Shown: positions 31,015-50,407, counted from the first letter of the stretch. The stretch is DNA of 64,000 nucleotides from Deltaproteobacteria bacterium (GCA_020059605.1 JAGVBT010000012.1:5431-69430), one strand, 5' to 3'. Notes: generated by a model not told the origin, from the letters alone. Translations and numbers: made by a program.

Positions 31015-31716
31015 TTAAACCTTAACACTTAAATAACGCTCCTGAATGTCCATTGCGCCTTCCAGCTCCGAAGGCGTTCCCTCGTAGACAATGGCCCCCT
31101 TTTCCATGATATAAACGCCCTCGCAAATATTCTTGATGGTCTTCAGATTTTGTTCGACCAGCAGGATGGTCGTCCCTTTTTGATTGATGATTTTCACGGT
31201 ATCCGCGATCAATTTAACCAACAACGGCATTAAGCCTTCCATGGGTTCATCCATCAGGATCAATTTGGGGTTGATGATTAAGGCTCTTCCCACCGCAAGC
31301 ATCTGCTGTTCCCCGCCCGAAAGGGTTCCGGCCTTCTGGTTTAATCGTTCTTTCAACCTTGGAAAGTATTGAAAGATTTCCTCAAGAAGGCGCTTGTCCA
31401 AGGGCCCCTCCACGATCGGGATTCTCAAGTTTTCCATGACGGTCAACTTGGGAAAGAGATGCCGCCCCTGGGGCATATAGGAGATCCCCATGCGGGGGAT
31501 TTGGTAAGGAGGCAAGTCAGAAAGGTTCGTCTCATAAAAATGGACCGATCCCTTTTTGCGAGGAACCATCCCCATGATCGATTTTAAGGTGGTGGTTTTC
31601 CCGACGCCATTTCTCCCGATCAGGCCAATCAGTTTTCCCTCGCCAACTTCCAGAGACGTATCGTAGAGAACCTGGCACTCGCCGTAACTGCAATTTAAAT
31701 TTTTCATTTTAAGCAT
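31015..31716 (-). CDS. livF: Branched-chain amino acid-type ABC ATPase
   Basis: GRNGVGKTT, AGTLSGGEQQML. Confidence 0.9.
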   Translation of the reverse strand: MLKMKNLNCSYGECQVLYDTSLEVGEGKLIGLIGRNGVGKTTTLKSIMGMVPRKKGSVHFYETNLSDLPPYQIPRMGISYMPQGRHLFPKLTVMENLRIPIVEGPLDKRLLEEIFQYFPRLKERLNQKAGTLSGGEQQMLAVGRALIINPKLILMDEPMEGLMPLLVKLIADTVKIINQKGTTILLVEQNLKTIKNICEGVYIMEKGAIVYEGTPSELEGAMDIQERYLSVKV

Positions 31717-33428: not shown

Positions 33429-33438
33429 GATTTTACTC

Positions 33439-34290: not shown

Positions 34291-34381
34291 TGGTTCTGTC
34301 CTTTTATGAATTTAAGCCCCTCCCTCATTCTTCCATTGGAGAGAAAAGAGGGAGGGGTTTCTACACAAGAACAGCCTTCTC

Positions 34382-35698: not shown

Positions 35699-35810
35699 AA
35701 TCCCCTCCCGATTGGTTAAATGTTATAAGGTTATCATCTCCCACCTCCCAAAAACATTTCCACCCCCTTTCTCCCGTCGATCATCAGTGTGGTGTTAATG
35801 AGCTTTGTCC

Positions 35811-35877
35811 TGTCATTCCCGAGAAAGCGGGAATCCAGATTGAAAACACTGGATTCCGGATCGAGTCCGGAATGACA
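35811..35877. repeat. TGTCATTCC-type REP doublet
   Basis: TGTCATTCCCG..CGGGAATCCAG...CTGGATTCCGG..CCGGAATGACA nested palindromes. Confidence 0.75.
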
Positions 35878-35896
35878 ACAGTATGATCTCCCTTCT

Positions 35897-37210
35897 TTAA
35901 GCGATCGCCTTATCGATCAGCTCCGTGAGGTCAAAGAGTTTCATCTTACTTCCGATTCCCTGAGCCCCCTGGTTGAGGTTATAATGGCAGAAGGGGCAGA
36001 TGGAGACCATGTGGTCTGCGCCGGTTTCCATGCCCTCCTGGATTCGGAGGCCTGCATTTCTCTGGGCCCAATCGTTATACCCGGTCATGACGCCGCCGCC
36101 CCCGCCGCAGCAATAGGAATTGGACCTGATCCTCCTCATTTCCCTCAGATCGATCCCGGGGATGGCCTTCAGAAGTTCTCTCGGGATATCATAGAGGCAA
36201 TCTTTTTCATCCAAGTTGACATAGGCGCCTGCCCAGAGCTGGGTCCCTTCTTTGTCGATGATGTACTTTGTGAGATGGCGACCCGCATGGCACGGATCAT
36301 GATAGGTCACTTTCCATGGCAACGATTCAGAAAATTTCAACTGTCCCATCTGGAAGAGATCGTGTAAGAATTGGGTGATGTGGGTGACCCGAATTCCTTC
36401 CATCATCCTTCCATACTCGTCGGCCATGGGGTAATCTTTCATGAAAGCCCTGTAACAGCCGGCGCAGGATGTGACAATGGTCTTTACCCCTTTTTCCTCA
36501 TGTAGCTTTCGGAACATTTCCAGATTCGATTCGGCGATTCTCTGAAAAGCCTCCGCATCCCCCAGTCTCATCGCGGTCGATCCGCAACAGACTTCCTGTT
36601 CTCCAAGGATGCCAAAATCAAGGCCCAGTTTGTGGAAGATGGATGCTGTCGCCTGGGGAACGGTTCTGACCGGAATGTTGTAGCCTCCTGTGCACCCGAC
36701 ATAATATAAAATCGGGGCCGGCTCTTCGAGGATATTCTTGATGGGTTTGCCTTCTTTCTTGAAGGGCCGGGTCCAGTCCAATCTCACCCGGCGTGGACCC
36801 TGATAGGGATTGTCATAGCTGCTCAAGGATTGGGCAATGACTTTTTGCTTGGGCATGGGACCCACGCCGTCGGTTACGGCCTTGCGTCTCATTGCCTCGA
36901 TGATCTCCGGAATAAATGGCTTGTGATCGAGTTGGCATTGACTCTGGCATCCGCCGCATATATTGCACCGATAAATGGCATCGACCAGCGCATCATTCCA
37001 TTGCAGCTCTCCGCTCAGGATTCCCCTGGCATAGGCGATTTTGCCTTTGGAGGATAAAAATCCTTCAAACCCAAACTCCTCTCCGGCAGGGCAGATCGGA
37101 GCGCTGAAAGGAGGAGGGCCATAGTCGTAGGCCTCTTTGCAGGTTCCGCAGGCGGTGCATCTCCAGAGGATATCTTCTAATTCTTCCAGACTGGGAATGT
37201 TCCATTTCAT
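35897..37210 (-). CDS. GlcF/HdrD-like Fe-S protein (two ferredoxin-type motifs plus two CCG domains)
   Basis: CTACGTC..CP, CNICGGCQSQC, VCCG, TSCAGC, YHDPCH, YCCGGGGG, CPFC. Confidence 0.88.
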   Translation of the reverse strand: MKWNIPSLEELEDILWRCTACGTCKEAYDYGPPPFSAPICPAGEEFGFEGFLSSKGKIAYARGILSGELQWNDALVDAIYRCNICGGCQSQCQLDHKPFIPEIIEAMRRKAVTDGVGPMPKQKVIAQSLSSYDNPYQGPRRVRLDWTRPFKKEGKPIKNILEEPAPILYYVGCTGGYNIPVRTVPQATASIFHKLGLDFGILGEQEVCCGSTAMRLGDAEAFQRIAESNLEMFRKLHEEKGVKTIVTSCAGCYRAFMKDYPMADEYGRMMEGIRVTHITQFLHDLFQMGQLKFSESLPWKVTYHDPCHAGRHLTKYIIDKEGTQLWAGAYVNLDEKDCLYDIPRELLKAIPGIDLREMRRIRSNSYCCGGGGGVMTGYNDWAQRNAGLRIQEGMETGADHMVSICPFCHYNLNQGAQGIGSKMKLFDLTELIDKAIA

Positions 37211-37255
37211 GACAACCTCCTATTTTGTAAATCCGGAGCACAAAATCCAAAATTG

Positions 37256-37308
37256 TGTAACTCAAGGCTTCAGCCTTGACCAAGTCAACCCTGAAGGGTT
37301 GAGTTACA
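37256..37308. repeat. TGTAA-type REP doublet
   Basis: TGTAACTCAAGGCTTCAGCCTTGA...AACCCTGAAGGGTTGAGTTACA; relative at 62808-62859. Confidence 0.75.
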
Positions 37309-37337
37309 GCATTTCGTGCTTAAGATTTTATTTTTAA

Positions 37338-38822
37338 TCAGATACCCAGCTTCCCGGGGTTCATAATATCATTCGGATCTAAAAATTTCTTCAATCGCTT
37401 CATCAGCATGAGGTAACCAGGATGCGCCCGTTTGTTAATCTCCGCGGCGAAGTCAACAGGAGGCTTATAAGGCATGCCGCCATTGTCCAAATCCACCTTT
37501 AAGCACTCAACGATGGCTTGTCTCGCATTCTCGGTTTCTTTCGGGTTCTTTTTATTAAAAGGGGTCATCGCCCTGAGCATCCCATAATGGACACCCCGGT
37601 ACATGCTCATCCGGATGGAAGGAGAAAGATTCCGACCAATCATGATCTTCTTCCATTCCTTATAAATGGGGGCCCACCGGTTTGCAGGAGTGAAGGTGCC
37701 CGGCCAGGAGATGCCCGCTCCGCCCATCTTGCAGTAATTCTTCGTGGAGCCCACGATCTGGCTGGGCAACTGGGTCCTGGCTTTTAACGCTTCTTCCGGG
37801 TAATGGGTGACCTGGATGCTCGTTCCCTTGTTTTTCTCCTCGTTGACGACCTTTTCCCAGATCTCGGTTCGAGCTTCTTTCTCTTTTTCCGTGAAGGAAA
37901 AGGTGGTGGCATAGCTAAACCATTCCGGGGCATCCTCCGGCTTGGGTTTATACGGGTAGGGAATCGGAACCTGGGATAACCACCAGGAGACGGCTGTGAG
38001 GTCGTCACAGATTTCATAATTGCTCAGGTTGAGCATGTAGGAATACATGTCGTCCACATGGTCGCAGGAAACGGTAAAGATCTTTAAAAGGGGAGGGATG
38101 TGATGGATGGCGATTCCAAGCTTGGTCACAATACCCGTGGAGCCGAGCCATCCCTTAAACAGCCCGTCCATTTGCGGCATTGGCAAACAACTGTGCCAGG
38201 CATCCGAATTGATGGCGCAGGACCCCACCCTGACCAGTTCACCGGTCGGAAGAACCACCTCCATGCTTGTAATCTCCTGGCTGTTCAATCCATACCTTGC
38301 ATTCATGTGGCCAATTCCATGGCTGATCGCACAGGAGGAGACGGAAGAGGAAGGGGGACCCACAGGCCAACCGAACCGGAGATTGTATTTATATAAGGCG
38401 TTGGCAAGCTGACCATGGGAGACGCCGGGTTCGATCACGGCATAGAGGGCCTCGGGGTCAAGCTTTACAATTTTATTCATTTTCTTTAAATCCAGGATGA
38501 TCCCGCCACGTTCAGGAATACAGAGTCCCCCGATATTGGTCCCTGATGTATAAGGCACCACTGGAATTTTTTCCTTATTAGAAAATTTCATCAACTTTTG
38601 TATCTCTTCGACGGTGTGGGCCATGACCACATAATCAGGCAGTTTGGGTGTGACAAAAGACATATCGTAAGAATAGGCGTAAAGAATATGTTCTTCCGCT
38701 GTGGCATTTTTTTCCCCGACAATCGTTTTTAATTCCTTCAGGATTCTTTCTTTCTTGTCGGTCCTCAATGCCTTTACGACCTTTCCCCCTTTACCTTTTT
38801 TATCTTCCTTTTTAGCTGTCAA
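37338..38822 (-). CDS. FAD-linked oxidoreductase (GlcD/VAO family)
   Basis: YSYD..P.YVV, GTNIGG, LDLKKMNKI, EPGV, EVVLPTGE, GIVTK, DPNDIMNPGK. Confidence 0.88.
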   Translation of the reverse strand: MTAKKEDKKGKGGKVVKALRTDKKERILKELKTIVGEKNATAEEHILYAYSYDMSFVTPKLPDYVVMAHTVEEIQKLMKFSNKEKIPVVPYTSGTNIGGLCIPERGGIILDLKKMNKIVKLDPEALYAVIEPGVSHGQLANALYKYNLRFGWPVGPPSSSVSSCAISHGIGHMNARYGLNSQEITSMEVVLPTGELVRVGSCAINSDAWHSCLPMPQMDGLFKGWLGSTGIVTKLGIAIHHIPPLLKIFTVSCDHVDDMYSYMLNLSNYEICDDLTAVSWWLSQVPIPYPYKPKPEDAPEWFSYATTFSFTEKEKEARTEIWEKVVNEEKNKGTSIQVTHYPEEALKARTQLPSQIVGSTKNYCKMGGAGISWPGTFTPANRWAPIYKEWKKIMIGRNLSPSIRMSMYRGVHYGMLRAMTPFNKKNPKETENARQAIVECLKVDLDNGGMPYKPPVDFAAEINKRAHPGYLMLMKRLKKFLDPNDIMNPGKLGI

Positions 38823-38905
38823 TGGAGCACCTCCTTTGAGACTCCGATGAGAATCGATGGAATCTCTTCGTTAATCAAGAATGACATCCTATCAAAATCA
38901 TGGCC

Positions 38906-38935
38906 ATGATAAATATCCCTGTCCGGGAAGTCAAG
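38906..38935 (-). promoter_or_regulatory. Sigma70-like promoter for the FAD oxidoreductase operon
   Basis: Minus strand TTGACT-N17-TATCAT. Confidence 0.55.
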
Positions 38936-38950
38936 GTTTTTCGTTAGGAA

Positions 38951-39988
38951 TTAATTGAGTTTGCCGTATTTCCTGGCCGCCGCCATCAATGTTTCCATGT
39001 TTTCCTTCGGCACCATGGGCCAGATATCGCAGCCGGGCCAGATGGCGTTGACCCCTCTCTCCACGGCTTCCTTAACCGCCTGATCCACATCACCGGGTTT
39101 CCCCTGGGAAAGGACCCCGTAAGCGTCCAATTCTCCGAAGATCAAGGCCTCCGGGCCCAGTTTCTTCCTGGTTTCGGTCACGTTATTCTTTTTTTCCACA
39201 CTGAGGGCATCCGCCCCGCAGAGGGCCATCTGGTCAATAATCGCATTCGTATCCCCGCAGATATGAAGCACCTTGGGCGATTCAATCCCGTCGAATACCC
39301 GCCTCAAGGGAGGTCGTATCAGGGATTCAAACATGCGCGGACTTAATATGTCCGGACCTGCGCCCATCTCGCGGACGGTAATATAATCGGCCCCGGCCTC
39401 CCGATAGATCTTGATCAGTTGGATGAGCACCCCGGCCAACTGGTCAAGCAACTTCCCCACCAAATCTTTCTTCTTAAAGGCGGCCTTGGCAAGCTGTGAG
39501 AGGTCGAGCAGCTGTCCGGCCAAGGTGTAGGGACCCAGAACCCATGAACCGATGGCGATCTGGTCGCCCACTTCCTGTTTCAAAATCCGGAGGGCCTCCG
39601 TGACCAGAGGGATCCTTCCGGCCCGGGCCAGATCGGAGGGAACTTGCAGATTCAAATCTTCCACCTTTTCCGCAGGGTGCTGGCTGATCGTAGGATAAAG
39701 GATGTCCGTGGCGTGAGTGTAATAATTCACTTTGCTGCCCAGCGCTTCCGCTTCGACTCCCATATCGAAGGGAACCACCGCGGACTCGAAGCCGAACAGT
39801 CGGAAAGTGGAGGCGGCCATATCCGCCATTTTTCGCGCATCGGTGTGAATCTCAGGAAATTTCCAGCCGTATTTCTCCAGGCCGTGAACGGTAATGTTCC
39901 CATAACCGCTGAAGAGAGGGATATAATCTAAAGGTTCCCTGCGAAAGAGCTTGAGCACTCGCTCCCTTGAGTTTTGACTTGTTGCCAT
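38951..39988 (-). CDS. MtaA/CmuA-family corrinoid methyltransferase
   Basis: VPFDMGVEAEALG, GRIPLV, GPYTLAG, LHICGD...PGCD. Confidence 0.9.
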   Translation of the reverse strand: MATSQNSRERVLKLFRREPLDYIPLFSGYGNITVHGLEKYGWKFPEIHTDARKMADMAASTFRLFGFESAVVPFDMGVEAEALGSKVNYYTHATDILYPTISQHPAEKVEDLNLQVPSDLARAGRIPLVTEALRILKQEVGDQIAIGSWVLGPYTLAGQLLDLSQLAKAAFKKKDLVGKLLDQLAGVLIQLIKIYREAGADYITVREMGAGPDILSPRMFESLIRPPLRRVFDGIESPKVLHICGDTNAIIDQMALCGADALSVEKKNNVTETRKKLGPEALIFGELDAYGVLSQGKPGDVDQAVKEAVERGVNAIWPGCDIWPMVPKENMETLMAAARKYGKLN

Positions 39989-39992
39989 ATTC

Positions 39993-40937
39993 TTATTCTC
40001 CTTTTTCTTGTTTAAATTGCTTGACGACATCGGGGAAGAGAAGGTTCAAAGGATGATTCCCCGCGGGCAAGAAGGAGCTTTCTACATAGGCCAGAGCGGC
40101 CGTCATGCTCGCAGCTGAAGCAACGGCCGGGAAGACTCTGTTAATTCCTGTCAATGGCCCGAAAAAGAGAAAATCGCTCATTAGGGCAGAGATGGCGTGG
40201 ACCCCTGCATCGATGGCCGGGAACTTATTCCTGTCTTTCTCGCTTGCCGCCTTTCTCCACATATAGGTCCCATTCGACGGGGCAAATCCCACGGGTAAGC
40301 CGAATTCTTTTTTAATCAGATGGTTGGCGAGCAGGGAAAACGTTGTGGTTGGAAGGTTCATCACCGCCGTGTCAATGAGGATGCTCTCAAAATTGCCCTT
40401 TTCCACCAGGGGCAGCAATGACTTAAGCGATTTCACCCTGCCGGTGGGCCTCTTATCCTCCATGTCGAAAACCTGAATCACCACATGTTTGATGCCCATC
40501 TCCTTCAATTCCGATACCTGGGCAGGAATGTCTTCGTCCCAGGGTGTGATGCTGTTATAGAGGACGCGGTTCTGGAGGCCCCGCCCTGCGACGTAGCGAG
40601 CCGCCTCCAGCCGGATTTTCTGTTGCCAGATGTCAATGGCAAAGGGCATCTCCGTGAAAGCGGTGAAGAAATCGATGTAAGTTTTCATCTCCTCCGCCGA
40701 GTTGGCCACCATGGCGATCATTGCGGGCACACCGGTTTCCCTGGACGTCTGCTCCAGCTCCCGGATTTTCTCTTCGGCCACTTCCCGGTTAAATTTTCCC
40801 TCTTTCCTGCTCTCCAGAATCAAATCGCCTTTTTGAAACATATTGCCGATGAGCAGGGGAGGGTTCTCTCCTAACGGACCGCCGACCTTGATGCCACCGA
40901 TGTCACAAACCCTCTGGTCCAATGGATACCTGAACAT
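39993..40937 (-). CDS. MtrH-family methylcorrinoid:tetrahydrofolate/H4MPT methyltransferase (CmuB/MtgA-like)
   Basis: MFRY...Q.V.DIGGIKVGG..GENP..LIG.MF, YNSI, LIDTAV, GLPVG.APSN, DFLFFGP. Confidence 0.88.
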   Translation of the reverse strand: MFRYPLDQRVCDIGGIKVGGPLGENPPLLIGNMFQKGDLILESRKEGKFNREVAEEKIRELEQTSRETGVPAMIAMVANSAEEMKTYIDFFTAFTEMPFAIDIWQQKIRLEAARYVAGRGLQNRVLYNSITPWDEDIPAQVSELKEMGIKHVVIQVFDMEDKRPTGRVKSLKSLLPLVEKGNFESILIDTAVMNLPTTTFSLLANHLIKKEFGLPVGFAPSNGTYMWRKAASEKDRNKFPAIDAGVHAISALMSDFLFFGPLTGINRVFPAVASAASMTAALAYVESSFLPAGNHPLNLLFPDVVKQFKQEKGE

Positions 40938-41060
40938 TCTTATGCCCCCTTAAAAAAGATCATTTCAAATTTGTCCATTAACCCCACCAAACCTCCCCTT
41001 ATTTTAAGGGGAGGGATATACCCCCTCTTAAATTAAGAGGGGGTAAGGAGGAGTTACCAT

Positions 41061-44000
41061 TCATTTCTTCTCCGGAAGGAGATGGGCCAGATGGGGAAAC
41101 TTGTCCTTCATATGGGGAATCCACATCGCCTCAGCAAAGATTTTGTCAAAGCCCGGTTCCAACGTCAGTTCCAAATAGTTGACGCGCCGCGCCCATGTGT
41201 CAGCCTCTTTCCTCTTCTCGACATTCAGAAGGGCCATGCGGGCCCCGTCTCCGGCGGCATTGCCCACCGAGTAGATGTTCTCAAGATCGCAATCCGGAAA
41301 AAGTCCGAGCACTGCGGCCGATACTTTGTCGATATAACTTCCAAAGGCGCCCGCTAAAATGACCTTATCCACCTTCTCCACGCCAAAGTGGCGCATCATA
41401 ATCTTCGAGCCGGCATACATTGCGCCTTTGGCGAGCTGGATTGCCCTCACATCGCTCTGGCAGACGACAATATCCTGGCCGATCGATGTCTCTTTCGCCC
41501 AGGCGATGACGAATTCGGGCTCGCCGTTATTTTCACGGGAACGGGGGGTCTTTAAATCTTTTTTGAAGCGTCCGGTCCGGTCGATGATCCCTGCCAGGAA
41601 TAACTGCGGAACCACATCGATGATCCCTGAGCCGCAGATGCCCTTGGCTCCCACTTCCTCCATCTCCGTGTTCCATCCCTCCCTGTCAATCACTTTGTAA
41701 CGCACGTCTTTGGTCTCAGGATCGATGACGATCTTTTCAATGGCGCCTGGAGCGGCGCGCATCCCGTATCGGATCTCCGCCCCCTCAAAGGCAGGGCCCG
41801 TGGCGCAGGAGGAAGAGATGAGCTTCTGCCGATTTCCCAGGATCAGCTCGCCATTTGTGCCGATATCGATAATCAGTTCGATGCTATCCTGAAAGTAAGG
41901 GGTCTCCGCGATCAGGACGCCCACATTGTCCGCGCCGACGAAGCCGGCTTCAATAGGAAGGACATGGACGTAAGCACCCGGGGCGATCTTGATCCCGATA
42001 TCCCGGGACACACCGGTTTCGGCAGCTCCTTTTTCGGCGTAAATGCCGCAGTTAAGACAGCGTTTCGATTCCTCAATCGCGGTCTCCAGTTGAGCTGCAA
42101 AGCCCGGATCCACTTCGGTAAACCCGGTCCTTTTCTCAGGCTCAAGAAGGGGCAACTCTTTTCTTGGTTCTTTGTCCACCCCTTCGATTGGAATCTCTTC
42201 CACTTTCTTGAGCTTGGCGGGCCTTCCTTTGATTAAATCAATGTTTTCCAGGTAGAGTTCAATGGAGGTGGCCGCTTCCTGGCCGGCCCCGATTGCGGAA
42301 ATCATATCCGAGGCGCCTAAGACAACATCTCCACCGGCGAAAACCCCTTCCATGCTTGTTTTTAAAGTCACCGGGTCCACGGTGAGGGTTCCGGGATTGG
42401 AATATCCAAGTTCTTCAAGGATCCCTTTCCCATTGACTTTCTGCCCAATCGCAACGATGAGGTGATCCGTTTCCATTTCAAATTCCGATCCCTTGACAGG
42501 GAAGGGCGCTCTGCGGCCGTCTTCTCCGGGCTCGCCCAGTTCCATTCGTATGCACCGGAGTCCGGCGATTCGACCCTGTAGGTTCAGGAGTTCAACCGGT
42601 GCCGCCAGAAAATTGAAATGTACCCCTTCTTTCATCGCTTCGTCCACTTCGGTTTTGATGGCCGGCATTTCATCGCGGGAGCGGCGGTAAACAACCAGGA
42701 CCTCTTCGGCGCCAAGACGTTTCATGACGCGGGCGGCATCCACGGCCGCATTCCCTCCACCCACGACGACCACGCGGTTTCCTGCTTCTACCTTTTCTCC
42801 GGAATTGACTTTTCTTAAGAGATCAAGGGCATGGGAAACTCCCTTCGCATCCTCGTGGGGGAGGTCCAGTGTCTCACTCACCCAGGCCCCCGTCGCGAGG
42901 AAGATGGCCTGGTATCCCTGCCCCCAAATGCCCTGAAGGCTATTTACCGGATGATCGGTTTTAATCTCCACGCCCAATTCTTCAATGTAGCGGATCTCGT
43001 CGTCCAGCACTTCTTTGGGCAGCCGATAATCCGGGATCCCGTAACGGAGCATCCCGCCTGCCTTTGGGGCCGATTCAAAGACCGTCACCGGGTAGCCCCG
43101 CCTCACCAGTTCATAGGAGCAGGCAAGGCCTGCCGGTCCAGAGCCGATGATCGCCACCTTCTTTTCCTTCGTTTTCTCTACCGGGGTAGTCTTTGGCCTG
43201 CCTTTTTTCAACTCGTGGTCGGCCACAAAGCGATGAAGAGCCCGGATGGACAGGGGGGCATCCACCCTGCTCCTTTCGCATTCGGGCTCACAGGGATGGG
43301 TGCATACACGGCCGCAGACTCCTGCAAAGGGCATCGCTCTCCTGACCTCTTCGAGAGCCTCGTCAAACTTGCCCTGCGCAATAAAGTATAGAAAATCCTG
43401 ACCGCTGATGCCGGCCGGGCAGGCAACCTGGCACGGAGGATAGCCGCCGATCTCAACGGTTTCTGCTTCAGGAGCGATCTTGAGTCCCCAGTCGCGTGCT
43501 TTAATGTCCATGGAATGGTGAAGCGCCGGAGGGAAGGGGGCCCGTCCGATATTCCGGGGGTCGATGTTCAGGAAAAGATGGTGCATGCAGGTATTTCCGA
43601 CAATCGTCATATCCAGGATGTCTGTGCGTTTAATTCCTGCGATGGCGGAGGCTTCTTCCACAATGCCATTGAGACCATCAATGATGGCCTTGTTCATGTA
43701 TTCGAGGCCTTCCGGGTTGGTCATGGTGTAACTGATCCGGGACATGACATCCTCCCCGTAAATCACCTGGGGGTTCATCATGGAGGCCGTGGCGACCAAT
43801 TTGCCGTCGGTCAGGTCACAGAGATAGCCCGCCACCGTGGTCGACCCGACATCGACCGCCAGGCCGTAAGCCTTTTTCACGAGCCCCGGTTCCACTTTGA
43901 TCACCTCTTTGTCATGCCATACGGAAACCGTGACCTTCCAATCCCCTTCACGCACCGCTTCTTGCAAACTCATGAGCGTCTGGTAGTCCATCGTAAGATT

Positions 44001-44513
44001 TTTGAGCCCATGAGATTTTTCGAGCCCCATTTCGAGGCGTTCCCAGTCTCCAAGGGTGTCCTCTAATGTGGCTTTCGGAATTTCCACATAGTACTTTTTG
44101 ACCGCCGGTTTCAACTCGATCTGTATTTCTTTAGCGGCCTTCCGGACGACCTGCTTTCCCATCCGGCTCTCTTCGGGGACGAAGACAATGACATCCCCCA
44201 GCACCTTTGCCTGGCAGGCCAAACGATAACCGCCGCGTTCCTGTTGCAAGCTGAAAAATTTTCTCTCGGTGGGCCCCATGGAAGAGAGGTGTTCCCGGCT
44301 CGATTCGATGCCGTATTTTTCAAAGAACCCCTGGTCAATTCTTACCTTGCATTTTCCGCAGATGGCTTTCTCGCCGCAGATCCCCTCGATATCCACTCCG
44401 AGCGCGACCGAAGCTTCCTTAAGCGTTTTTCCTTTCTCAACAAAACCCCTCCGACCCGAGGGTTGGAAAATAACCATGCACTGGTCGGCTTTTTCTTTCT
44501 TTCCCTGCATCAT
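41061..44513 (-). CDS. ATP-dependent corrinoid activator (RACo/ASKHA) with inserted GltD-like FAD/NADPH domain
   Basis: N-terminal [2Fe-2S] (CGEKAICGKC..RLAC), AVDVGSTT, NPQ..YGEDVMSRI, GFVGAD, DIGTNGE, GPAFEG, GICGSG, IQLAKGA, AGAFG, GNAA; residues ~349-845 are GltD-like. Confidence 0.9.
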   Translation of the reverse strand: MMQGKKEKADQCMVIFQPSGRRGFVEKGKTLKEASVALGVDIEGICGEKAICGKCKVRIDQGFFEKYGIESSREHLSSMGPTERKFFSLQQERGGYRLACQAKVLGDVIVFVPEESRMGKQVVRKAAKEIQIELKPAVKKYYVEIPKATLEDTLGDWERLEMGLEKSHGLKNLTMDYQTLMSLQEAVREGDWKVTVSVWHDKEVIKVEPGLVKKAYGLAVDVGSTTVAGYLCDLTDGKLVATASMMNPQVIYGEDVMSRISYTMTNPEGLEYMNKAIIDGLNGIVEEASAIAGIKRTDILDMTIVGNTCMHHLFLNIDPRNIGRAPFPPALHHSMDIKARDWGLKIAPEAETVEIGGYPPCQVACPAGISGQDFLYFIAQGKFDEALEEVRRAMPFAGVCGRVCTHPCEPECERSRVDAPLSIRALHRFVADHELKKGRPKTTPVEKTKEKKVAIIGSGPAGLACSYELVRRGYPVTVFESAPKAGGMLRYGIPDYRLPKEVLDDEIRYIEELGVEIKTDHPVNSLQGIWGQGYQAIFLATGAWVSETLDLPHEDAKGVSHALDLLRKVNSGEKVEAGNRVVVVGGGNAAVDAARVMKRLGAEEVLVVYRRSRDEMPAIKTEVDEAMKEGVHFNFLAAPVELLNLQGRIAGLRCIRMELGEPGEDGRRAPFPVKGSEFEMETDHLIVAIGQKVNGKGILEELGYSNPGTLTVDPVTLKTSMEGVFAGGDVVLGASDMISAIGAGQEAATSIELYLENIDLIKGRPAKLKKVEEIPIEGVDKEPRKELPLLEPEKRTGFTEVDPGFAAQLETAIEESKRCLNCGIYAEKGAAETGVSRDIGIKIAPGAYVHVLPIEAGFVGADNVGVLIAETPYFQDSIELIIDIGTNGELILGNRQKLISSSCATGPAFEGAEIRYGMRAAPGAIEKIVIDPETKDVRYKVIDREGWNTEMEEVGAKGICGSGIIDVVPQLFLAGIIDRTGRFKKDLKTPRSRENNGEPEFVIAWAKETSIGQDIVVCQSDVRAIQLAKGAMYAGSKIMMRHFGVEKVDKVILAGAFGSYIDKVSAAVLGLFPDCDLENIYSVGNAAGDGARMALLNVEKRKEADTWARRVNYLELTLEPGFDKIFAEAMWIPHMKDKFPHLAHLLPEKK

Positions 44514-44546
44514 TTATTCCCCATTTAATCTCTCACATTTAAATTA

Positions 44547-44660
44547 GAAATCCGAATATCGAAATCCGAAACCCAAGTTCAATATCAAAATTCTAAACTT
44601 TTTTTAGGACATTTGGATTTTGAACATTCGTGCTTGTTTCGAATTTCGTATTTCGGATTT
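44547..44660. repeat. 7-bp-period inverted repeat (AAATCCG / CGGATTT type)
   Basis: aaatccg-aatatcg-aaatccg...tttcgaa-tttcgta-tttcgga; relative at 62777-62913. Confidence 0.7.
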
Positions 44661-45342
44661 ATTTTTTAGAAAGCTCCTCTTCCTTCAGCATCTTGAGAAG
44701 TTTGATCGCTTCATCGACAGCGGTCCCGGCATCTTTGGCGTAGCCGTCCGCCCCGTATTTTTCAGCCACTTCCGGATTTACCGGAGCGCCGCCGATCATG
44801 ATCCGGACTTTAGGGTTCTTGGCCCGCAACCTTTTAATCACCTCGGGCATATTGAGCATGCTCGTCGTCATCAACGCCGAGATCCCGACGACATTCGACT
44901 CTGTCCTGATCTGCTCTTCAACAAACTTGTCGAGAGGGACATCTTTTCCCAGGTCGTAAACCGTCCAGCCGGCCACCTCAAACATCAGCTTGACCAGGTT
45001 TTTCCCGATGTCGTGAACATCGCCCTCCACAACGCCCAGGACGATCGATCCTTTCACCTCTGATTTTCGGCCCGAGGCTTCAATGGCTGGTTTTAAAAGG
45101 TCCAGGCCGGCATAGAGCGCGTCCGCACACATGAGCAGTTCGGGGACAAAGTATTCCTTTTTATTGTATTTATCTCCGGCCTCCATCATCCCCTCAGCCA
45201 GCCCCTCCATGGTGGCGATAAAGGGATCGACCCCTTCCTCCAAGGCAATCTTCGACCATTTTGCCGCCTCTTCCTCTTCAAATTGAGCGACGGCTTCGTG
45301 AAGCCCTTTCAAAATTTCTTTCGTCCTCTCCTCTGTCGCCAT
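44659..45342 (-). CDS. Corrinoid-binding protein (MtaC/MttC family)
   Basis: EYFVPELL, VEGDVHDIGKNLV (DxHxxG), SALMTTSM, IGGAP. Confidence 0.93.
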   Translation of the reverse strand: MATEERTKEILKGLHEAVAQFEEEEAAKWSKIALEEGVDPFIATMEGLAEGMMEAGDKYNKKEYFVPELLMCADALYAGLDLLKPAIEASGRKSEVKGSIVLGVVEGDVHDIGKNLVKLMFEVAGWTVYDLGKDVPLDKFVEEQIRTESNVVGISALMTTSMLNMPEVIKRLRAKNPKVRIMIGGAPVNPEVAEKYGADGYAKDAGTAVDEAIKLLKMLKEEELSKK

Positions 45343-45373
45343 AAATGGTTCCTCCTGAACTTAAAAAAAATTG

Positions 45374-46297
45374 TCATGGTTGATCGGACGGATTACCCAA
45401 GGCCATAAAAAAAAGTTCCCCGGTTCCCATCCTTCGAAAAATGACTCCTCGTTGATTCAGCCTGTCGGTCAATTCCTGGCCAAGAACTTCGGATAAATCT
45501 TTCGGCATGAACACGTCATGGGGGGATTGATCTAAAGGGATGGGCGTCTGTTGAGGGCGGAGGGGATGGTCGTCACTCAGAAGCAACGTTGGATCAAAGG
45601 GTTGGGTTCCATTGAGCCTGGCCATATGGTTCCCCACGATCAGCAGGTCATCAATGATCTCTCTCCTCGCCCCCACTCCGTCTCTTTGTTTTAAGCATTC
45701 GAGGATGGCCCGATGGGATTTGGTCACTTTATGATAGAATTCGGGTCCGAGGTTCAGGTTAAACTTAATATCATTCAGAATATTATCGATAAAATCCATC
45801 ACCAGTATCAGGATGGGGTTTTCGGTCATCCTGGCCAGGTAACGATGGAATCCTATCTCTCTGGCAACAATGGTATGAGGGGTGGCCGGAATTTCCGTGA
45901 TCATGCTCTCCAACTTAACAATGTCCTCCGGCAGGATGCGCGAGGCTGCAATCTGGGCAACAGGCGGCTCGAGCAAATAGCGGATCATGGTAATATCTCT
46001 GACGGAGATGGTCTTGAAGTGGAGAAAGTTGATGATGCTGTGGATCGTCGTCTTCATATCCACTTCTGCAATAAAGACGCCGCCGGTGATTCCCTTTCGA
46101 ATCTGCACTAACCCCATGCCTTCGAGTACCCTTAAAGATTCCCGCAGGGTGGCTTTACTGACGCCAAACTGCGACATGAGTTCCTTTTCAGAGGCCACTT
46201 TATCCCCCGGTTTAAACTGGCCCGACAGGATGGCATTTCTTATCTGCTCGATAATCTGGTCGGAAATCTTTAGCGTTTTGTTGGCAGTCTGAAACAA
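45374..46297 (-). CDS. GntR/FadR-family transcriptional regulator
   Basis: I.EQIRNAILSGQFKPGD..SEKEL..FGVS..TLRE HTH; FCD domain FHRYLA..N. Confidence 0.9.
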   Translation of the reverse strand: MFQTANKTLKISDQIIEQIRNAILSGQFKPGDKVASEKELMSQFGVSKATLRESLRVLEGMGLVQIRKGITGGVFIAEVDMKTTIHSIINFLHFKTISVRDITMIRYLLEPPVAQIAASRILPEDIVKLESMITEIPATPHTIVAREIGFHRYLARMTENPILILVMDFIDNILNDIKFNLNLGPEFYHKVTKSHRAILECLKQRDGVGARREIIDDLLIVGNHMARLNGTQPFDPTLLLSDDHPLRPQQTPIPLDQSPHDVFMPKDLSEVLGQELTDRLNQRGVIFRRMGTGELFFMALGNPSDQP

Positions 46298-46337
46298 AGG
46301 CCTATCTCGCTTGTGTTGAATGATGAAGTGTGGAGCT

Positions 46338-46393
46338 ATCTTACACAGAACTAAATAGAAATGTCAAGAAAAAATGTTATAAATATTATAATA
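46338..46393 (-). promoter_or_regulatory. Sigma70 promoter with upstream 17-bp motif
   Basis: TTGACA-N18-TAAGAT on minus strand; TTATAAATATTATAATA at 46377-46393 also present at 61834-61850. Confidence 0.6.
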
Positions 46394-46411
46394 AATTAAT
46401 TATTAATATAA

Positions 46412-47437
46412 TCATGGCGTTATATCAGCATTCCCTTGAATGGATATACTTTTTGAGGGTTGGTAAACAATTCCAGTGATCTTATCTTCTTGAAAATCAA
46501 AAAGTTTCCTGTTTTCTCGCCCATCTTTTATGGTGACGGTGGGTCCATCAATGACCTTGCCAATCATGGAGGCCTTAATCTCCCTCCCCTGGAAGAGGTC
46601 AATGACCCGCTGGGACCGATCCGGGGCAACAGAGAGAACAAACCCGAAGCTCTGAAAGCAAACGAGCCAGTCCGAAAGTTCAATGTCAGGCGGTTTCGGG
46701 ATGGAAGGCAGGTCGATGATAGCGCCCTTGCCGGAGTTTTCCATCATAATCGAAACCGTTCCCAGAATTCCTGCATTGCTCACATCCTTTGCGGCTTGAG
46801 CCCATTTTTTTTCAGCGAGGATGGGCAGGGCTTCCAGACGATACAGCAACTCTTCCGTTGTCTTTCCGGAGTTGGCATCCCAGCTCACCACGGAGTGGCA
46901 CCCCTTATCGCCTTTGAGGTCTATGGCAAGAATGAGATCGTCTCCTACGTTTGCCAGATGACCCCTGAGCAGCTTATTGGCATGACCTAAAATAGCGACA
47001 GCCAATGAAGGAGAAGTGGCGGGTGCATCCGGGTGTAAGTGACCCCCCACCATGGGGACCCCCAGTTTGTTACAACCCTTCCTGATTCCTTCCACGACTT
47101 TTGATCGCTGCTCTTCCTCTCCGCTGGCGAGGACATTGACCATGGCCAGGGGTCTGCCACCCATGGAATAAATATCGTTGACCGTGACCATCACCGATGC
47201 TTTCCCGGCCGCATAGGGTTCGTTCACCAGCAACCTGGTCATGATGCCATCAGCGGCAAGAAGCAAGAAGCCATCTTTCCAGGGAATGATGGCCGCGTCG
47301 TCCCCAAAATTGGGCAACTGCGGTCCCGGCTGTCCTTGTAAAACCAGTTTATCGAAAACATCTTTAATGGGTTGTTTGCGCAATAACCCTTCGTAATTTC
47401 GAACTCTTTCAACAATCTGAGATAAGTTGATACTCAC
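46412..47437 (-). CDS. AIR-synthase-related (PurM/SelD fold) protein, sll0787 / methanogenesis marker 2-like
   Basis: GDDAAII, LLLAADG, VNDIYSMGGRP, VGGHLHPD, AKDVSNAGILGT, DWL..F..FGFVL. Confidence 0.85.
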   Translation of the reverse strand: MSINLSQIVERVRNYEGLLRKQPIKDVFDKLVLQGQPGPQLPNFGDDAAIIPWKDGFLLLAADGIMTRLLVNEPYAAGKASVMVTVNDIYSMGGRPLAMVNVLASGEEEQRSKVVEGIRKGCNKLGVPMVGGHLHPDAPATSPSLAVAILGHANKLLRGHLANVGDDLILAIDLKGDKGCHSVVSWDANSGKTTEELLYRLEALPILAEKKWAQAAKDVSNAGILGTVSIMMENSGKGAIIDLPSIPKPPDIELSDWLVCFQSFGFVLSVAPDRSQRVIDLFQGREIKASMIGKVIDGPTVTIKDGRENRKLFDFQEDKITGIVYQPSKSISIQGNADITP

Positions 47438-47530
47438 AAAGGCCTCTTCAATTTAATGTGCGCTTCCGAATGGCATAGAGGCTTGCGTCAAATTCTTTAC
47501 GCCTAACGCTTTGCGCTATGCGCTTTGCCC

Positions 47531-49042
47531 TTAGTCGTCCAGGTTGGCTTCCATAAGCTGGTGGGGCTTACCAAAATATTCTTTCACAGCCTCAATTGTT
47601 TTCCAACCAAGTTGAGAAAAAAAGGGAACATTTTCAACCTGGATGTGGGCCGTAAATTTAGTGCAGCTCTGGCTCTTAACGCAGCGCATCGCTTCCCGAA
47701 CCAATAATTCGCCCGCGCCCGTATTTCTGAACCCTTTTCTCACGGCTAACCTTCCTCCGATCCAGTGGCCATTTGCCTTGACAGGAAAGAGCCGGACCGT
47801 TCCAACGACCTGATGATCCAGTTCCGCTATCAAATGGATGCTCTTGGCATCATCCTCGTCGCAGTCCGAATCTGGAAAGAGATTTTGCTCCTGGACAAAG
47901 ACCTCCCTTCGAATTTCGAAGGCCTTCTGCTGTTCCGCACCGGTTCTGACAGGATGACAGATTAGGGGATCTCTTTCTTGCTCATAGGCATGAAGGGCCG
48001 AACAGGCGCCGCAACGGACACAGCCGGCATGCGACCGACGGGCGGAAAGCCCCTTGCTCTTCAATATCAAGGAAACGGTCTCATAGAGGAACTTCATCGT
48101 TTCCGGATCAGGGGGCAGGGCATCTTCCATGAGAGAACCGGGGATGGGTCTCAATGGAATGATGAAAGGATAGACACCGAGATCGGCTAAAAATTCGCTC
48201 CCCCGGATGACCGATTCTTTCTTTTCTCCGAGTCCTCCGATCAGGAAGCTGCTGACCTGATTGGGACCGAACACCTCCACCGCGATCTTCCATGCTTCCT
48301 CATATTTTTTAAGACCCATGGCGGCTTTCGCCGGGGCCACCCGGGATAAGGTTTCAAGATCAAAGCTTTCAATATGAATTCCCACCGTATCCACTCCGGC
48401 GTCTTTCAACTCAACGTACATCTCAGGATCGGGGGAAGGGGTGAATTGGGCATGGATGGGCAAACCGGCGGCTTTTTTAATGGCTGCCGCACAACGCGCC
48501 AGATGGGAGATCTCCCGGTTGATGGGTCGAACGGTTCCGGTCGTTAAAACGATGTGCTGAATCGAATCGAGTTTTTTTGCTTTGGCCGCCACTTCGGCGA
48601 TCTGTTCAGGGGTTTTGATCCTGATGGTTTGTCCGCTTTCATAGGACAGGTTGATTCCACAAAATAGGCACTGTTTGTCCGTATGCCAGTGGGCACAGGT
48701 TTGGACGACCGTCGTGGCAAGACAGTCTTTCCCATGAAGAAGAGCAATTTGGGGATAGGAGATCCCATCCTCCGTCGAATCACTATAAAACGCCGGCCGC
48801 TCGACAAATTTCACGGAACGGAGCAATTTTCCATCCTTGAAAATGTGATATCTCCCGTCTTCTTCTTTTAAGAGGTAAGGGGATTCCAGAACATATCGGC
48901 TGCTCATCGGGAGAGAGACAGGAATCCCCTCGATGAGCAGGGTTCCGCCTTCGGCCGGGCCTGCCCCGCCTTTCCGGTTTAAGAGCTGTCTCTCAAAACG
49001 CAGGCCAAAGCTCTGAAGTTCTGTAATCAGATGGGGAATCAT
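47531..49042 (-). CDS. MSMEG_0568/sll0785-family radical SAM fused to MSMEG_0567/sll0786-type GNAT
   Basis: RKGGAGP, IALLHGKDCLATTVVQTC-x8-CLFC, GCVRCGACS; C-terminal IRREVFVQEQ..GTVR..WIGGRLAV..AHIQVENV.FF..LGW. Confidence 0.88.
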   Translation of the reverse strand: MIPHLITELQSFGLRFERQLLNRKGGAGPAEGGTLLIEGIPVSLPMSSRYVLESPYLLKEEDGRYHIFKDGKLLRSVKFVERPAFYSDSTEDGISYPQIALLHGKDCLATTVVQTCAHWHTDKQCLFCGINLSYESGQTIRIKTPEQIAEVAAKAKKLDSIQHIVLTTGTVRPINREISHLARCAAAIKKAAGLPIHAQFTPSPDPEMYVELKDAGVDTVGIHIESFDLETLSRVAPAKAAMGLKKYEEAWKIAVEVFGPNQVSSFLIGGLGEKKESVIRGSEFLADLGVYPFIIPLRPIPGSLMEDALPPDPETMKFLYETVSLILKSKGLSARRSHAGCVRCGACSALHAYEQERDPLICHPVRTGAEQQKAFEIRREVFVQEQNLFPDSDCDEDDAKSIHLIAELDHQVVGTVRLFPVKANGHWIGGRLAVRKGFRNTGAGELLVREAMRCVKSQSCTKFTAHIQVENVPFFSQLGWKTIEAVKEYFGKPHQLMEANLDD

Positions 49043-49638
49043 GATCCGTGCATTCTTGCGGCGACTTCCGACACTCGCTTACCAAGGTTTCGCGCTGTTT
49101 CCAAACCCAAGCTGTCCTTTTCTATTCCATCCGGATGGCCGCTCCACAGGGCGGCCCCATAGTGTGAGGTTGGTTGGCCTTCGCTGACGACCACCATATC
49201 CTGGACTAACATCGCCGCCTGCACCGCCCGGATGGCGAGTTCCTGTCCCCCGTTTCGAACTCCGCCTACTGCGATGACACCGCCCACTTTATTGCGCAAA
49301 AGGAATCCATTTCTCCTGAACATGACGCAACGGTCAAGAAAAGCCTTGCACTGTGAGGTCATGGAGCCGAAATAAACAGGGGTCGCTACCACCAACCCCG
49401 CCAATTTTGGATCCGAAAGGATAGGAATCATCTTTAGGAAATCATCCTTTTGACTGCATTCTAAAACCTTTAAGCATTTCCCACAGGCAATGCACCCATT
49501 GATCTTCATTTCCGAAAGATCGATCAGAGTCGTTTCGACTTCAGGGGCAGCCACTTTTACCGCCTGGAGACAAGTTTCCAATGCATAAAAGGTGGATTTC
49601 CCTTTACGGGGACTGCAGGCGATTCCAATGATCCTCAT
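49039..49638 (-). CDS. Iron-sulfur flavoprotein / multimeric flavodoxin (Isf-like)
   Basis: CSPRKG, CIACGKC..C..KDD, ATPVYFG, RNGGQE. Confidence 0.88.
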   Translation of the reverse strand: MRIIGIACSPRKGKSTFYALETCLQAVKVAAPEVETTLIDLSEMKINGCIACGKCLKVLECSQKDDFLKMIPILSDPKLAGLVVATPVYFGSMTSQCKAFLDRCVMFRRNGFLLRNKVGGVIAVGGVRNGGQELAIRAVQAAMLVQDMVVVSEGQPTSHYGAALWSGHPDGIEKDSLGLETARNLGKRVSEVAARMHGS

Positions 49639-50407
49639 CTCGAACCTCCTCCCTTTTCATCTCCTCTTCTAAAATTTTTAAAATATCTCTTCTGATATGG
49701 TTGCATACTTCGCCGGTGCGGTCCCTGGGCCTTGGAAACGCCACCTCAATCCGTTCAAGCATCCTGGCAGGCCTTCTGGAAAGGACGACAATCTCATCGC
49801 TCAGGAAAACGGCTTCTTCGACATTGTGCGTGACAAAGATGATGGTGTCGCCTCTTTTCAACCAGATCTTGAGGAGAAATTCCTGCATGGCATTGCGGGT
49901 CTGGCTATCGAGGGAACCGAACGGTTCGTCCATTAAAACGACACGGGGGTTCATGACCAGGGTTCTTGCAATGGCCACCCTCTGCTTCATCCCGCCCGAA
50001 AGTTCCCGGGGATAGCGATGTTCAAATCCGTTTAAGTCAAAGGTCTTAATGTATTCCATGGCGATTGAACGCCTCCTGACCTTATCCATTCCCCGGATCT
50101 CAAGTCCCATCTCAATGTTCTGGAGAGTCGTCCTCCAGGGAAAGAGCGCATATTCCTGAAAGACCATCCCCACATCTTCCGATCCCCGGACCATCTCCTT
50201 CCCGTCCAGAAGAACTTTTCCGACCGAGGCTTTTTCGAGTCCGGCAATGATCCTGAGAAGCGTCGTCTTTCCGCACCCGCTTGGCCCGATGAGGGAGACA
50301 AATCTTCCATTGTCAATCCGGTGCTGGAGCTGATCCAGGACGTGGACGCTCTCCCCCCGGCTCCCGCCTGAAAAGGTCTTGCTGAGGCCAAGAATTTCTA
50401 AACCCAA
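49604..50407 (-). CDS. Nitrate/sulfonate-type ABC ATPase (TauB/SsuB-like)
   Basis: GPSGCGKTT, FQEYALFPW, LSGGMKQR, DEPFGSLD. Confidence 0.9.
   Translation of the reverse strand: MGLEILGLSKTFSGGSRGESVHVLDQLQHRIDNGRFVSLIGPSGCGKTTLLRIIAGLEKASVGKVLLDGKEMVRGSEDVGMVFQEYALFPWRTTLQNIEMGLEIRGMDKVRRRSIAMEYIKTFDLNGFEHRYPRELSGGMKQRVAIARTLVMNPRVVLMDEPFGSLDSQTRNAMQEFLLKIWLKRGDTIIFVTHNVEEAVFLSDEIVVLSRRPARMLERIEVAFPRPRDRTGEVCNHIRRDILKILEEEMKREEVRDEDHWNRLQSP

Follow-up and report, generated by a model that had tools for sequence, protein, structure and literature searches.

A RACE-type corrinoid activator interrupted by a circularly permuted NAD(P)H/FAD/Fe-S module: a candidate for built-in electron supply

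Architecture and reality of the fused activator

The window analyzed here is a stretch of 64,000 nucleotides from a Deltaproteobacteria bacterium (GCA_020059605.1 JAGVBT010000012.1:5431-69430), to whose first letter all positions refer. At 41061..44513 on the minus strand, which carries all domains and repeats described in this section, it holds one open frame of 1150 aa encoding a corrinoid reductive activase of the RACE type into which a NAD(P)H/FAD/iron-sulfur (Fe-S) module is inserted. From the N-terminus, Pfam profiles recognized a plant-type [2Fe-2S] ferredoxin domain (Fer2; residues 25-104, 44202..44441; Cys46, 52, 55 and 100), the RACo linker domain (PF17650; residues 128-212, 43878..44132; 94.8 bits) and the first ASKHA subdomain, 'Raco_middle', with its AVDVGSTT motif and the invariant D221 and G223 (PF17651; residues 216-338, 43500..43868; 179.8 bits). 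The Raco_middle match itself runs over residues 216-352, corresponding to positions 1-137 of the 163 in the profile, and has a second stretch after the insert. The inserted module with its two short linkers occupies residues 349-835 (42009..43469), as delimited by Pfam and by alignments to PDB chains, and is absent from unfused relatives. It consists of an Fe-S helical domain containing C361, C365, C404, C408, C412 and His427 (Fer4_20, profile positions 29-111; residues 358-437, 43203..43442; 69.8 bits, cut-off 25.8), of FAD and NAD(P)H Rossmann domains with the motifs IIGSGPAG, GGGNAA...VVYRRSR and FAGGD (Pyr_redox_2 and alignments to NfnB, StnC and NfnA; residues 451-735, 42309..43163; 101.2 bits, cut-off 26.1), and of a C-terminal segment discussed below. 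The remainder of the ASKHA ATPase follows at residues 846-1150 (41064..41978), with GFVGAD, DIGTNGE, SCATGPAFEG and AGAFGS (RACo_C_ter, residues 878-1142; 316.1 bits); the cut-offs of the three RACo profiles are ~26-27 bits, and every Pfam match, that of Fer2 included, lies far above its cut-off. The architecture search proposed in an earlier, sequence-only reading of this DNA thus returned what that reading had predicted, RACo/ASKHA domains split by Fer4_20 and Pyr_redox_2.

The two RACo-type halves align to 3zyy_X at residues 13-345 and 840-1135. They share the four-part scaffold (Fer2 [2Fe-2S] domain, linker and two ASKHA subdomains) and the conserved motif positions of RACo (AcsV) from Carboxydothermus hydrogenoformans (3ZYY, 4C1N) and of the bacterial O-demethylase activating enzymes (AE), as well as the genetic setting, an operon that also encodes a corrinoid protein and methyltransferases. 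Compared with these enzymes, the fused protein adds a 497-aa NAD(P)H/FAD/2x[4Fe-4S] module and a 10-aa duplication inside the ASKHA fold. RamA of methanogens is a more distant relative. No model was passed in an NCBIfam scan, the cut-offs of both AcsV (NF040756; 446.4 vs 800 bits) and RamA (TIGR04270; 111.9 vs 500 bits) being missed; judged by its sequence, the protein is RACE-type and an orthologue of neither.

The sequence-only reading had the activator break off after ARDWGLKIAP (residue 348) and resume after SRDIGIKIAP (residue 845), and these coordinates and motifs were correct. The two repeat copies, evident in the sequence and in alignments, lie at residues 339-348 (43470..43499) and 836-845 (41979..42008) and are identical at 7 of 10 residues. 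Excision leaves the normal-sized activator that had been claimed (1150 - 497 = 653 aa), the unfused relative L025 having 652 aa. The motifs listed for the insert were also all found (PCQVACP, CGRVCTHPCEPEC, IIGSGPAG, GGGNAA, YRRS and FAGGD); a cysteine pair at its C-terminal end, RCLNCG (residues 818-823), had not been mentioned. For comparison across the family we used an alignment (A2) that comprises 71 fused proteins, 45 unfused ones and 20 with the module only, to which the counts given below out of 71, 45 and 20 refer. The segment KARD-LGIKI-xPGAY is single in the 24 unfused RACo rows displayed (of the 45 aligned) and stands on both sides of the insert in fused rows, so that the diverged duplication claimed earlier is genuine. 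In tblastn searches with the query, the two high-scoring segment pairs overlapped on the unfused subject by 36 nt (loci L025, L029 and L030) or 30 nt (L031). Both copies are discernible in 71/71 fused proteins, yet only 14-28 of 42 nt are identical between them in 24 fused genes, which indicates that the duplication of this RACo segment is old and has been preserved at the protein level.

An assembly chimera or sequencing artefact fusing a GltD-like gene into a RACo gene deserves next to no credence and is already refuted. The same architecture recurs in 120 of 120 clusters among the matches listed, from many sources, and in 27 of 33 related loci from species-level genomes, all of them metagenome-assembled genomes (MAGs; five loci are unfused and one is too short to classify). 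No stop codon interrupts the frame, and the insert shows both conservation and selection. A contig from the likely source sample (X1 record 2) spans 41119-44655 with 0 differences, and contigs of two other, independent studies (X2 and X3) bridge junction 1 (X2 record 14, X3 record 21) as well as junction 2 (X2 record 11, X3 record 19), which answers in favor of the fusion the junction check that had been proposed. Among the contigs matched to the window, none had a joint skipping the 1491-nt insert; the joints that were listed had 18-28 letters on their short side, at 90% likeness, and were treated as noise from other organisms or repeats. One fused orthologue (G022:C91:7423-10869) contains an in-frame TAA and is possibly a pseudogene or affected by a sequencing error.

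A word-indexed protein search scored 8000 proteins, 7877 of them at E <= 0.001, and listed 120. At least 120 protein clusters among the matches listed have the RACo + Fer4_20 + Pyr_redox_2 Pfam set (62-100% identity, 1013-1188 aa), under generic names such as 'DUF4445 ... / NADPH-dependent glutamate synthase', 'ASKHA domain-containing' or 'FAD-dependent oxidoreductase'. At the level of 50%-identity representatives, a single one of the best 150 (P0010) aligns end to end, the others matching the two RACo halves or just residues about 345-827; the fused family is thus one tight cluster. In the ESM Atlas there is likewise a single cluster of 1150-aa proteins (201 members), whose automatic name is uninformative. 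Other RACo fusions exist, with a C-terminal URO-D-like domain (P0131, P0143, P0151, P0185, P0204 and P0212; about 850-910 aa) or a cyclic-nucleotide-binding (cNMP) domain (P0123; 784 aa), indicating that the RACo scaffold tolerates fusion to functional partners. Those fusions are terminal and methyltransferase-like or regulatory, whereas the insert studied here is an internal redox module; among the best 150 representatives, no redox-input module on RACo was found outside the fused family.

Distribution, insertion and loss of the module

The MAGs containing the 33 loci belong to Syntrophales/Syntrophaceae/Syntrophorhabdus, Desulfobacterales, Dehalococcoidia/Chloroflexi and 'Pseudomonadota'. 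Within the order of the window organism, 9 of 55 genomes have the fused gene and 2 have a close unfused version. The window's own genome encodes one further, ordinary RACo gene (667-aa frame, 33-37% identical).

Trees were computed from the 640 RACo columns that remained without the insert and the repeats. With FastTree, all fused rows fell into one tight group among 80 rows (53 fused, 27 unfused). For IQ-TREE, the set was reduced to 31 fused and 9 unfused rows by removing L001, 22 fused rows that were near-duplicates and 17 unfused rows that were distant. Here the 31 fused rows grouped with four unfused ones (L025, L030, L031 and L035) at 99% SH-aLRT support, L030 being basal, and L025 and L035 stood within a 99% subclade alongside eight fused rows. 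At least two changes between the fused and unfused states are forced by well-supported branches, and the tree as it stands needs four. An approximately unbiased test rejected the 31 fused rows as one group (log-likelihood difference 81.7, p = 0.0007), this group having been named after the tree was seen. Because unfused genes nest within the fused clade, its loss is secondary in these genes, and the simplest history is one insertion with duplication, followed by a minimum of one or two losses, each precise and in frame. On this history, the insert is advantageous and not essential.

The two nested unfused genes differ in what they retain. L025 is 89-93% identical to the flanks of the query and has a single copy of the repeat segment. 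L035 (674 aa, 73-83% identical to the flanks) keeps both copies around a 10-residue linker, KARDFGFK-PSLKEGEGKP-AHDTGIRIAS (L035:8001-10004; also G025:C8). It looks like the scar of an insert loss and less likely represents a pre-insertion hairpin; a comparison of its linker with the insert ends showed no similarity, so that the linker alone is no proof of a deletion, which is given by the tree. Repeat-mediated excision through nucleotide microhomology was considered and not adopted: the in-register identical run is 10 nt in the window and just 2-10 nt across 24 fused genes, which makes excision by nucleotide homology of the flanking repeats a possibility at most.

The module is retained under constraint. 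Its dN/dS was 0.049 against L016 (N-flank 0.031, C-flank 0.018) and 0.065 against L004 (both flanks 0.021), rough figures given that dS was 1.5-4 and thus near saturation, and amino-acid identity to L016 was 0.82 for the insert and 0.91-0.93 for the flanks. These values indicate purifying selection on the insert.

The inserted module and its cofactor sites

Over ~467 residues, the insert shares 47-55% identity with the NADPH/FAD/2x[4Fe-4S] modules found in Csac NfnA, archaeal NfnA and StnC. With the insert as query, the best PDB chain was NfnA of the Caldicellulosiruptor NfnABC complex (9bov_A, residues 101-568; E = 2e-122), followed by archaeal Nfn-Bfu NfnA (9n5u_A; E = 2e-116), StnC (8oh5_C, residues 101-567; E = 1e-103), NfnB (4ylf_B; E = 4e-81), the NfnI large subunit (5jca_L; E = 1e-72) and GltD (6s6s_G and 2vdc_G; E = about 4e-60); the whole fused protein matched dihydropyrimidine dehydrogenase (DPD) at E = 2e-31. 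The insert had been called GltD-like. This holds for the superfamily, since the Fer4_20 + Pyr_redox_2 fold, FAD, NADPH and two [4Fe-4S] motifs are common to NfnB/NfnL (4YLF, 5JCA) and GltD (6S6S, 2VDC), and needs narrowing beyond it: the module belongs with the NfnB/Stn type and is circularly permuted. Of these enzymes, NfnB is a bifurcating one, and GltD works for the large subunit, GltB.

The permutation concerns the segment at residues 791-826 (42036..42143, minus strand), which ends in E815-x2-R818-C819-x2-C822 and is homologous to the N-terminus of NfnB and GltD. In the canonical order this RCxxC segment is N-terminal, whereas in the fused protein it follows the flavin domains. The Fer4_20 match begins at profile position 29, and residues 808-823 correspond, weakly (E = 0.035), to positions 13-28; in a pairwise alignment, insert residues 791-823 pair with NfnB 12-43 and residues 360-755 with NfnB 46-459. 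A profile of the tail (A3; residues 778-832 of 24 fused genes) was searched against the PDB. It matched the canonical N-termini of 4ylf_B (residues 16-42, E = 2.6e-6), 5vj7_A (17-47, E = 5.6e-5), 5jca_L (21-47, E = 6.3e-5), 6s6s_G (22-53, E = 2.1e-4) and 2vdc_G (2-27, E = 0.062), and positions behind the flavin domains in the Bfu-type chains 9n5u_A (551-594, E = 5.6e-8), 9bov_A (526-567, E = 1.6e-4) and 8oh5_C (533-566, E = 9.1e-4). Compared with NfnB/GltD, the cassette is thus a circular permutant, and its segment order is that of Stn and NfnABC. The N-termini of P0257, P0238 and P0229, against which 76, 200 and 501 of 1000 shuffles scored as high as the tail, were unsuitable comparators, as these proteins are themselves permuted or carry a CxxCxxCxxxCP motif of the ordinary ferredoxin kind.

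Other carriers of the module pair it with dihydroorotate dehydrogenase (DHODH)-like, HdrA-like, FlpD/MvhD, CCG or Fer4 partners. Their Fer4_20 match also starts at about profile position 23-31, and 18 of the 20 aligned have the E-x2-RC-x2-C ending. The same cassette occurs in three more frames of the window's own genome (G000:C145:9157-10599, C49:6235-7641 and C136:33100-34317; 1492, 638 and 473 aa; 40-47% identity), and a cassette protein of ~1490 aa recurs in most genomes of the order.

The closest parallels are StnC (Sporomusa ovata, 8OH5) and Bfu-type NfnA (Caldicellulosiruptor 9BOV/9BP5; archaeal 9N5U), in which the cassette has the same permuted order, CxxxCP start, RCLxCG end and NADPH-type YRR motif, and is likewise inserted into a host beside an N-terminal [2Fe-2S] domain. 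The host there is NuoG/FdhF-like and here an ASKHA ATPase, and the fused protein has no HydBC-like bifurcating partner. According to the passages of PMC10482914 that deal with StnC, its GltD-like domain comprises residues 102-565, binds FAD, NADPH and two [4Fe-4S] clusters and sits between the N-terminal [2Fe-2S] domain and the remaining NuoG-like protein; the FAD is described there as non-bifurcating, electrons being passed one by one along a cluster chain that includes the N-terminal [2Fe-2S] cluster. The corresponding passages of PMC11829005 assign the same role to the NfnA FAD domain in NfnABC. By homology, the module of the fused protein is predicted to work like these cassettes, in a protein that is itself neither Stn nor Nfn.

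The cofactor sites are strongly conserved. C361, C365, C404, C408, C412, C819, C822, E815 and R818 are invariant in 71/71 fused proteins. The same holds for both GxGxx[G/A] motifs and, with one exception, for GGD (D729 in 70/71). The four [2Fe-2S] cysteines (C46, C52, C55 and C100) are kept in 71/71 fused and 45/45 unfused proteins, and D221, G223, D883, G885, T886, N887, E889, G1055 and G1058, which we take to represent the ASKHA nucleotide-binding motifs, are identical in all 116. In what we take to be the ligand scheme of DPD and NfnB, C361, C819 and C822 together with C412 would bind the distal cluster, and C365, C404 and C408 together with one non-Cys residue the FAD-proximal one. By this homology, the ligand set for two [4Fe-4S] clusters appears complete (seven Cys and one non-Cys position). 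C400 is Cys in just 49/71 fused proteins, which fits a non-ligand. The non-Cys position is His427 in 71/71 fused proteins, Lys in 19 and Glu in 1 of the 20 other carriers, and Glu in the aligned NfnB chains; in StnC it is K170, an equivalence taken from the StnC alignment with numbering checked against the published C114. K170 is a ligand of cluster C7 and strictly conserved in StnC, as stated in the relevant passage of PMC10482914. His427 is thus a change tied to the fusion and located on the predicted electron path.

The relationship to NfnB raises the question whether the inserted flavin bifurcates, a version in which bifurcation would supplement or replace ATP, one NADPH electron being driven uphill through the two [4Fe-4S] clusters to Co(II) and the other passing to a higher-potential acceptor. 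Homology to bifurcating NfnB (4ylf_B, E = 4e-81) and an arginine, R497, that aligns with NfnB R201 and StnC R239 and is at least 90% conserved in fused proteins speak for this; yet the Stn/NfnABC type, with an FAD described as non-bifurcating, is the closer match to the module, the Glu found as ligand in NfnB has been exchanged, a second acceptor site is not apparent, and the ATPase motif positions are fully conserved. We consider bifurcation very improbable. Equally improbable is its combination with ATP-driven transfer in one polypeptide, where the second electron would leave through the [2Fe-2S] domain to a higher-potential acceptor, and just as little weight attaches to the associated step of pushing the first electron through the His-ligated [4Fe-4S] pair towards Co(II). 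We prefer a non-bifurcating electron input, whose donor is suggested by the second Rossmann site.

This site is of the NADPH type in the protein studied (GGGNAA + VVYRRSR), which also shares the VVYRRSRDEMPA stretch with NADPH-using relatives. YRR[S/T/G] with GGGN[A/S/G]A occurs in 40/71 fused proteins, this one included. In the other 31/71 it is replaced by [C/S]LE[S/T/P], with a five-residue insertion in 30 of them (alignment A1, columns for residues 578-620), and GGGNAA by GGGSVA; these proteins correspond to a 100%-supported Desulfobacteraceae-type clade, inside which P0121 is an exception. In Rossmann folds, an acidic residue closing strand 2 usually points to NADH, and the [C/S]LE form may represent a switch from NADPH to NADH specificity, not decay. 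The NADPH-type assignment made earlier thus applies to this protein and does not extend to the family as a whole.

The altered site bears on another explanation, that the module serves a different carrier (ferredoxin or an HdrA/MvhD-type partner) as docking or entry point, or is a redox sensor, with a pyridine-nucleotide site that is secondary, regulatory or working in reverse (NADP+ reduction), so that NAD(P)H would not be the physiological source of the repair electron. Besides the change in 31/71 members, this explanation can draw on the closest non-RACo carriers, which are multi-domain proteins (HdrA-like, FlpD/MvhD, CCG, DHODH-like) with the module inside larger electron-transfer assemblies, and on unfused relatives that operate with external donors. 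It has to contend with both Rossmann motifs and the FAD-site residues being invariant in 71/71, with an altered site that keeps GxGxxA and gains Glu where NADH use is usually marked, as in a specificity switch, and with the lack of any such partner gene conserved next to the fused gene in the 33 related loci. We regard it as unlikely, and continue with NAD(P)H as the probable donor.

Operon context, predicted electron path and significance

The fused gene is part of an operon on the minus strand with the order GntR/FCD regulator (45374..46297; also present in L003, L013 and L016), corrinoid protein, fused activator, MtrH-family gene, MtaA/CmuA-family gene, GlcD-like flavoprotein, HdrD/CCG protein and Liv-type ABC importer. 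The corrinoid protein (44659..45342), identified by Pfam (B12-binding_2 + B12-binding) and its DVHDIG motif, is cognate and the presumed client of the activator; a homologue is found in 29 of the 33 related loci, mostly directly upstream, the other four loci being cut by contig ends. Downstream lie an MtrH-family methylcorrinoid:pterin methyltransferase (39993..40937; MtrH 8z9u_B, E = 3.6e-42, and, as second structural match, the Desulfitobacterium methylcorrinoid:tetrahydrofolate methyltransferase 6sj8, E = 6e-40) and an MtaA/CmuA-family methyltransferase of the URO-D fold (38951..40030; 4ay7, E = 2.5e-55). MtrH-like and/or URO-D methyltransferases also follow the activator in related loci, a URO-D homologue (at least 59% identity) being present in 24 of the 33 and an MtrH-like gene in 19.

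Several further features of the region were noted. The GntR/FCD regulator resembles sensors of small hydroxy-acids. The GlcD-like FAD oxidase and HdrD/CCG Fe-S protein behind the methyltransferases (35897-38822) are conserved in the closest relatives only (L003, L016 and L024) and might oxidize the demethylated product. The Liv-type ABC importer directly downstream on the same strand (31015-35698; a Peripla_BP_6 binding protein, two permeases and two ATPases) is likely the uptake system for the methyl donor. Directly upstream of the regulator (46412-49042) are genes for an AIR-synthase-like protein of the sll0787 family and for a radical SAM protein (MSMEG_0568-type) that is fused to a GNAT domain (MSMEG_0567-type), a little-understood set of 'nitrogen starvation' genes. 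A second URO-D-family methyltransferase (23370-24392) adjoins an arginase-family protein and a DUF6125 protein at 20833-24392. The spacer between the corrinoid protein and activator genes (44514-44658) contains an imperfect inverted repeat of TTCGAAAT-like units, one copy of which recurs with 3 mismatches at 62780-62802. Contigs pile up on this spacer to a summed depth of 195-327 (X1-X3) and 18 (X4), against nearby depths of about 2-40, and the many loose contig ends there resemble those of a multi-copy element; Rfam gave no match at the gathering threshold within 35000-50000, the spacer included.

Taken together, we put at about 0.65 the probability that the fused protein is a RACE-type, ATP-dependent activator of the neighboring corrinoid protein with an acquired NADPH electron-input module of its own. 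NADPH would deliver a hydride to the FAD of the module, from which single electrons would pass to the FAD-proximal [4Fe-4S] cluster (C365, C404, C408 and His427), on to the distal cluster (C361, C412, C819 and C822) and then to the activator's own mobile N-terminal [2Fe-2S] domain; this domain would reduce Co(II) while the ASKHA domain spends ATP, making the Co(II)/Co(I) reduction feasible. In the permuted cassette, both ends would supply ligands of the distal, or exit, cluster, where they would meet 12-13 residues from the repeat on either side; such a cassette could be inserted into a surface loop. Retention of the [2Fe-2S] domain in 71/71 fused proteins fits a module that feeds this domain and does not replace it. 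The potential of NADPH is about -320 mV. The [2Fe-2S] donors of RACE-type ATPases are flexibly linked to the ASKHA core (PMC7317905); for AE, the passages of PMC6739815 on its energetics give a cluster potential of -330 mV and a shift of the Co(II)/Co(I) couple from -530 to -250 mV by AE and ATP. On these values, NADPH would be thermodynamically adequate once ATP is spent.

Domain docking of the module (residues 349-835) against residues 1-125, with clusters, gave an ipSAE of 0.50 (three runs, 0.48-0.51; best control 0.11), with a contact agreement of at least 82% and a partner pLDDT of at least 81. In the calibration, 58 of the 80 solved complexes reached the mark, and so did 2 of the 110 mismatched pairs. 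Only 7 of the 80 solved complexes passed with a score no higher than 0.60, the range that held both of the passing mismatches. The pass may moreover reflect likeness to the solved StnC and NfnA chains, in which a [2Fe-2S] domain precedes the module.

As a further alternative, the module could be merely carried along by the activator and have a job unrelated to Co(II) reduction: it might remove oxidants at the expense of NAD(P)H and so protect Co(I), for example, or reduce a compound derived from the substrate. The weakness of the docking score that links the exit cluster to the [2Fe-2S] domain, and an insert that evolves about twice as fast as its flanks, leave some room for this, but the single fixed insertion site within the ATPase fold, short linkers of 12-13 residues, the conservation of both repeat copies in 71/71, the fusion-specific His427 change on the electron path and the use of the same cassette as electron input in Stn and NfnABC make it a still less likely alternative than entry of another carrier.

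For the activator with its own NADPH input, the points that weigh against it are the following. The docking support for the [2Fe-2S] domain on the module is weak; the non-Cys ligand position is His, and not Glu as in NfnB or Lys as in StnC; the dN/dS figures are rough; YRR is absent in 31/71 fused members, so that NADPH would not be the donor for the whole family; and the insert is dispensable, the unfused L025 and L035 sharing this operon and branching within the fused clade, so that external donors evidently suffice. The self-reducing activator of the sequence-only reading nonetheless agrees with all sequence-level tests run, as a prediction of function. The same reading had called it an anaerobic counterpart of methionine synthase reductase. 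In that system, as in the flavodoxin/flavodoxin reductase system for MetH, NADPH-derived electrons re-reduce an inactive Co(II) corrinoid by diflavin or flavodoxin chemistry, the uphill step being driven by methylation from S-adenosylmethionine and not by ATP. The comparison stands as a functional analogy, not as homology, with ATP in place of S-adenosylmethionine.

Assays of RACE-type activators use Ti(III) citrate or Eu(II)-DTPA as reductant. The known activators are described with external donors, named in the passages of PMC6739815 concerned as 'e.g., ferredoxin or flavodoxin'. Full-text literature searches gave no description of a RACo, AE or RamA protein with a pyridine-nucleotide module, and the DUF4445 literature found concerns ordinary RamA-like proteins that reactivate MetH (PMC5764234). 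By their sequences, the fused proteins are a widespread, uncharacterized family of activators with a built-in permuted NADPH-input cassette. NADPH, which is not yet established as a donor for corrinoid activases, is probably the source from which this enzyme draws its repair electrons.

RACE-type activators sustain the corrinoid methyltransferases of anaerobic C1 metabolism in acetogenesis, methylotrophy, O-demethylation and methionine synthesis, and a natural fusion of activator and NADPH module is a Rosetta-stone hint to their physiological donor. It offers a single-protein system suited to NAD(P)H + ATP-dependent Co(I) formation, for which insert-less close relatives, the scar form with both repeats and the sub-family with an altered dinucleotide site are natural controls. 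The permuted GltD/NfnB cassette of the Stn and NfnABC transhydrogenases would then be a portable electron-input unit for unrelated scaffolds, and, if the proposed function is true, NAD(P)H would be established as a physiological reductant of RACE-type activators.

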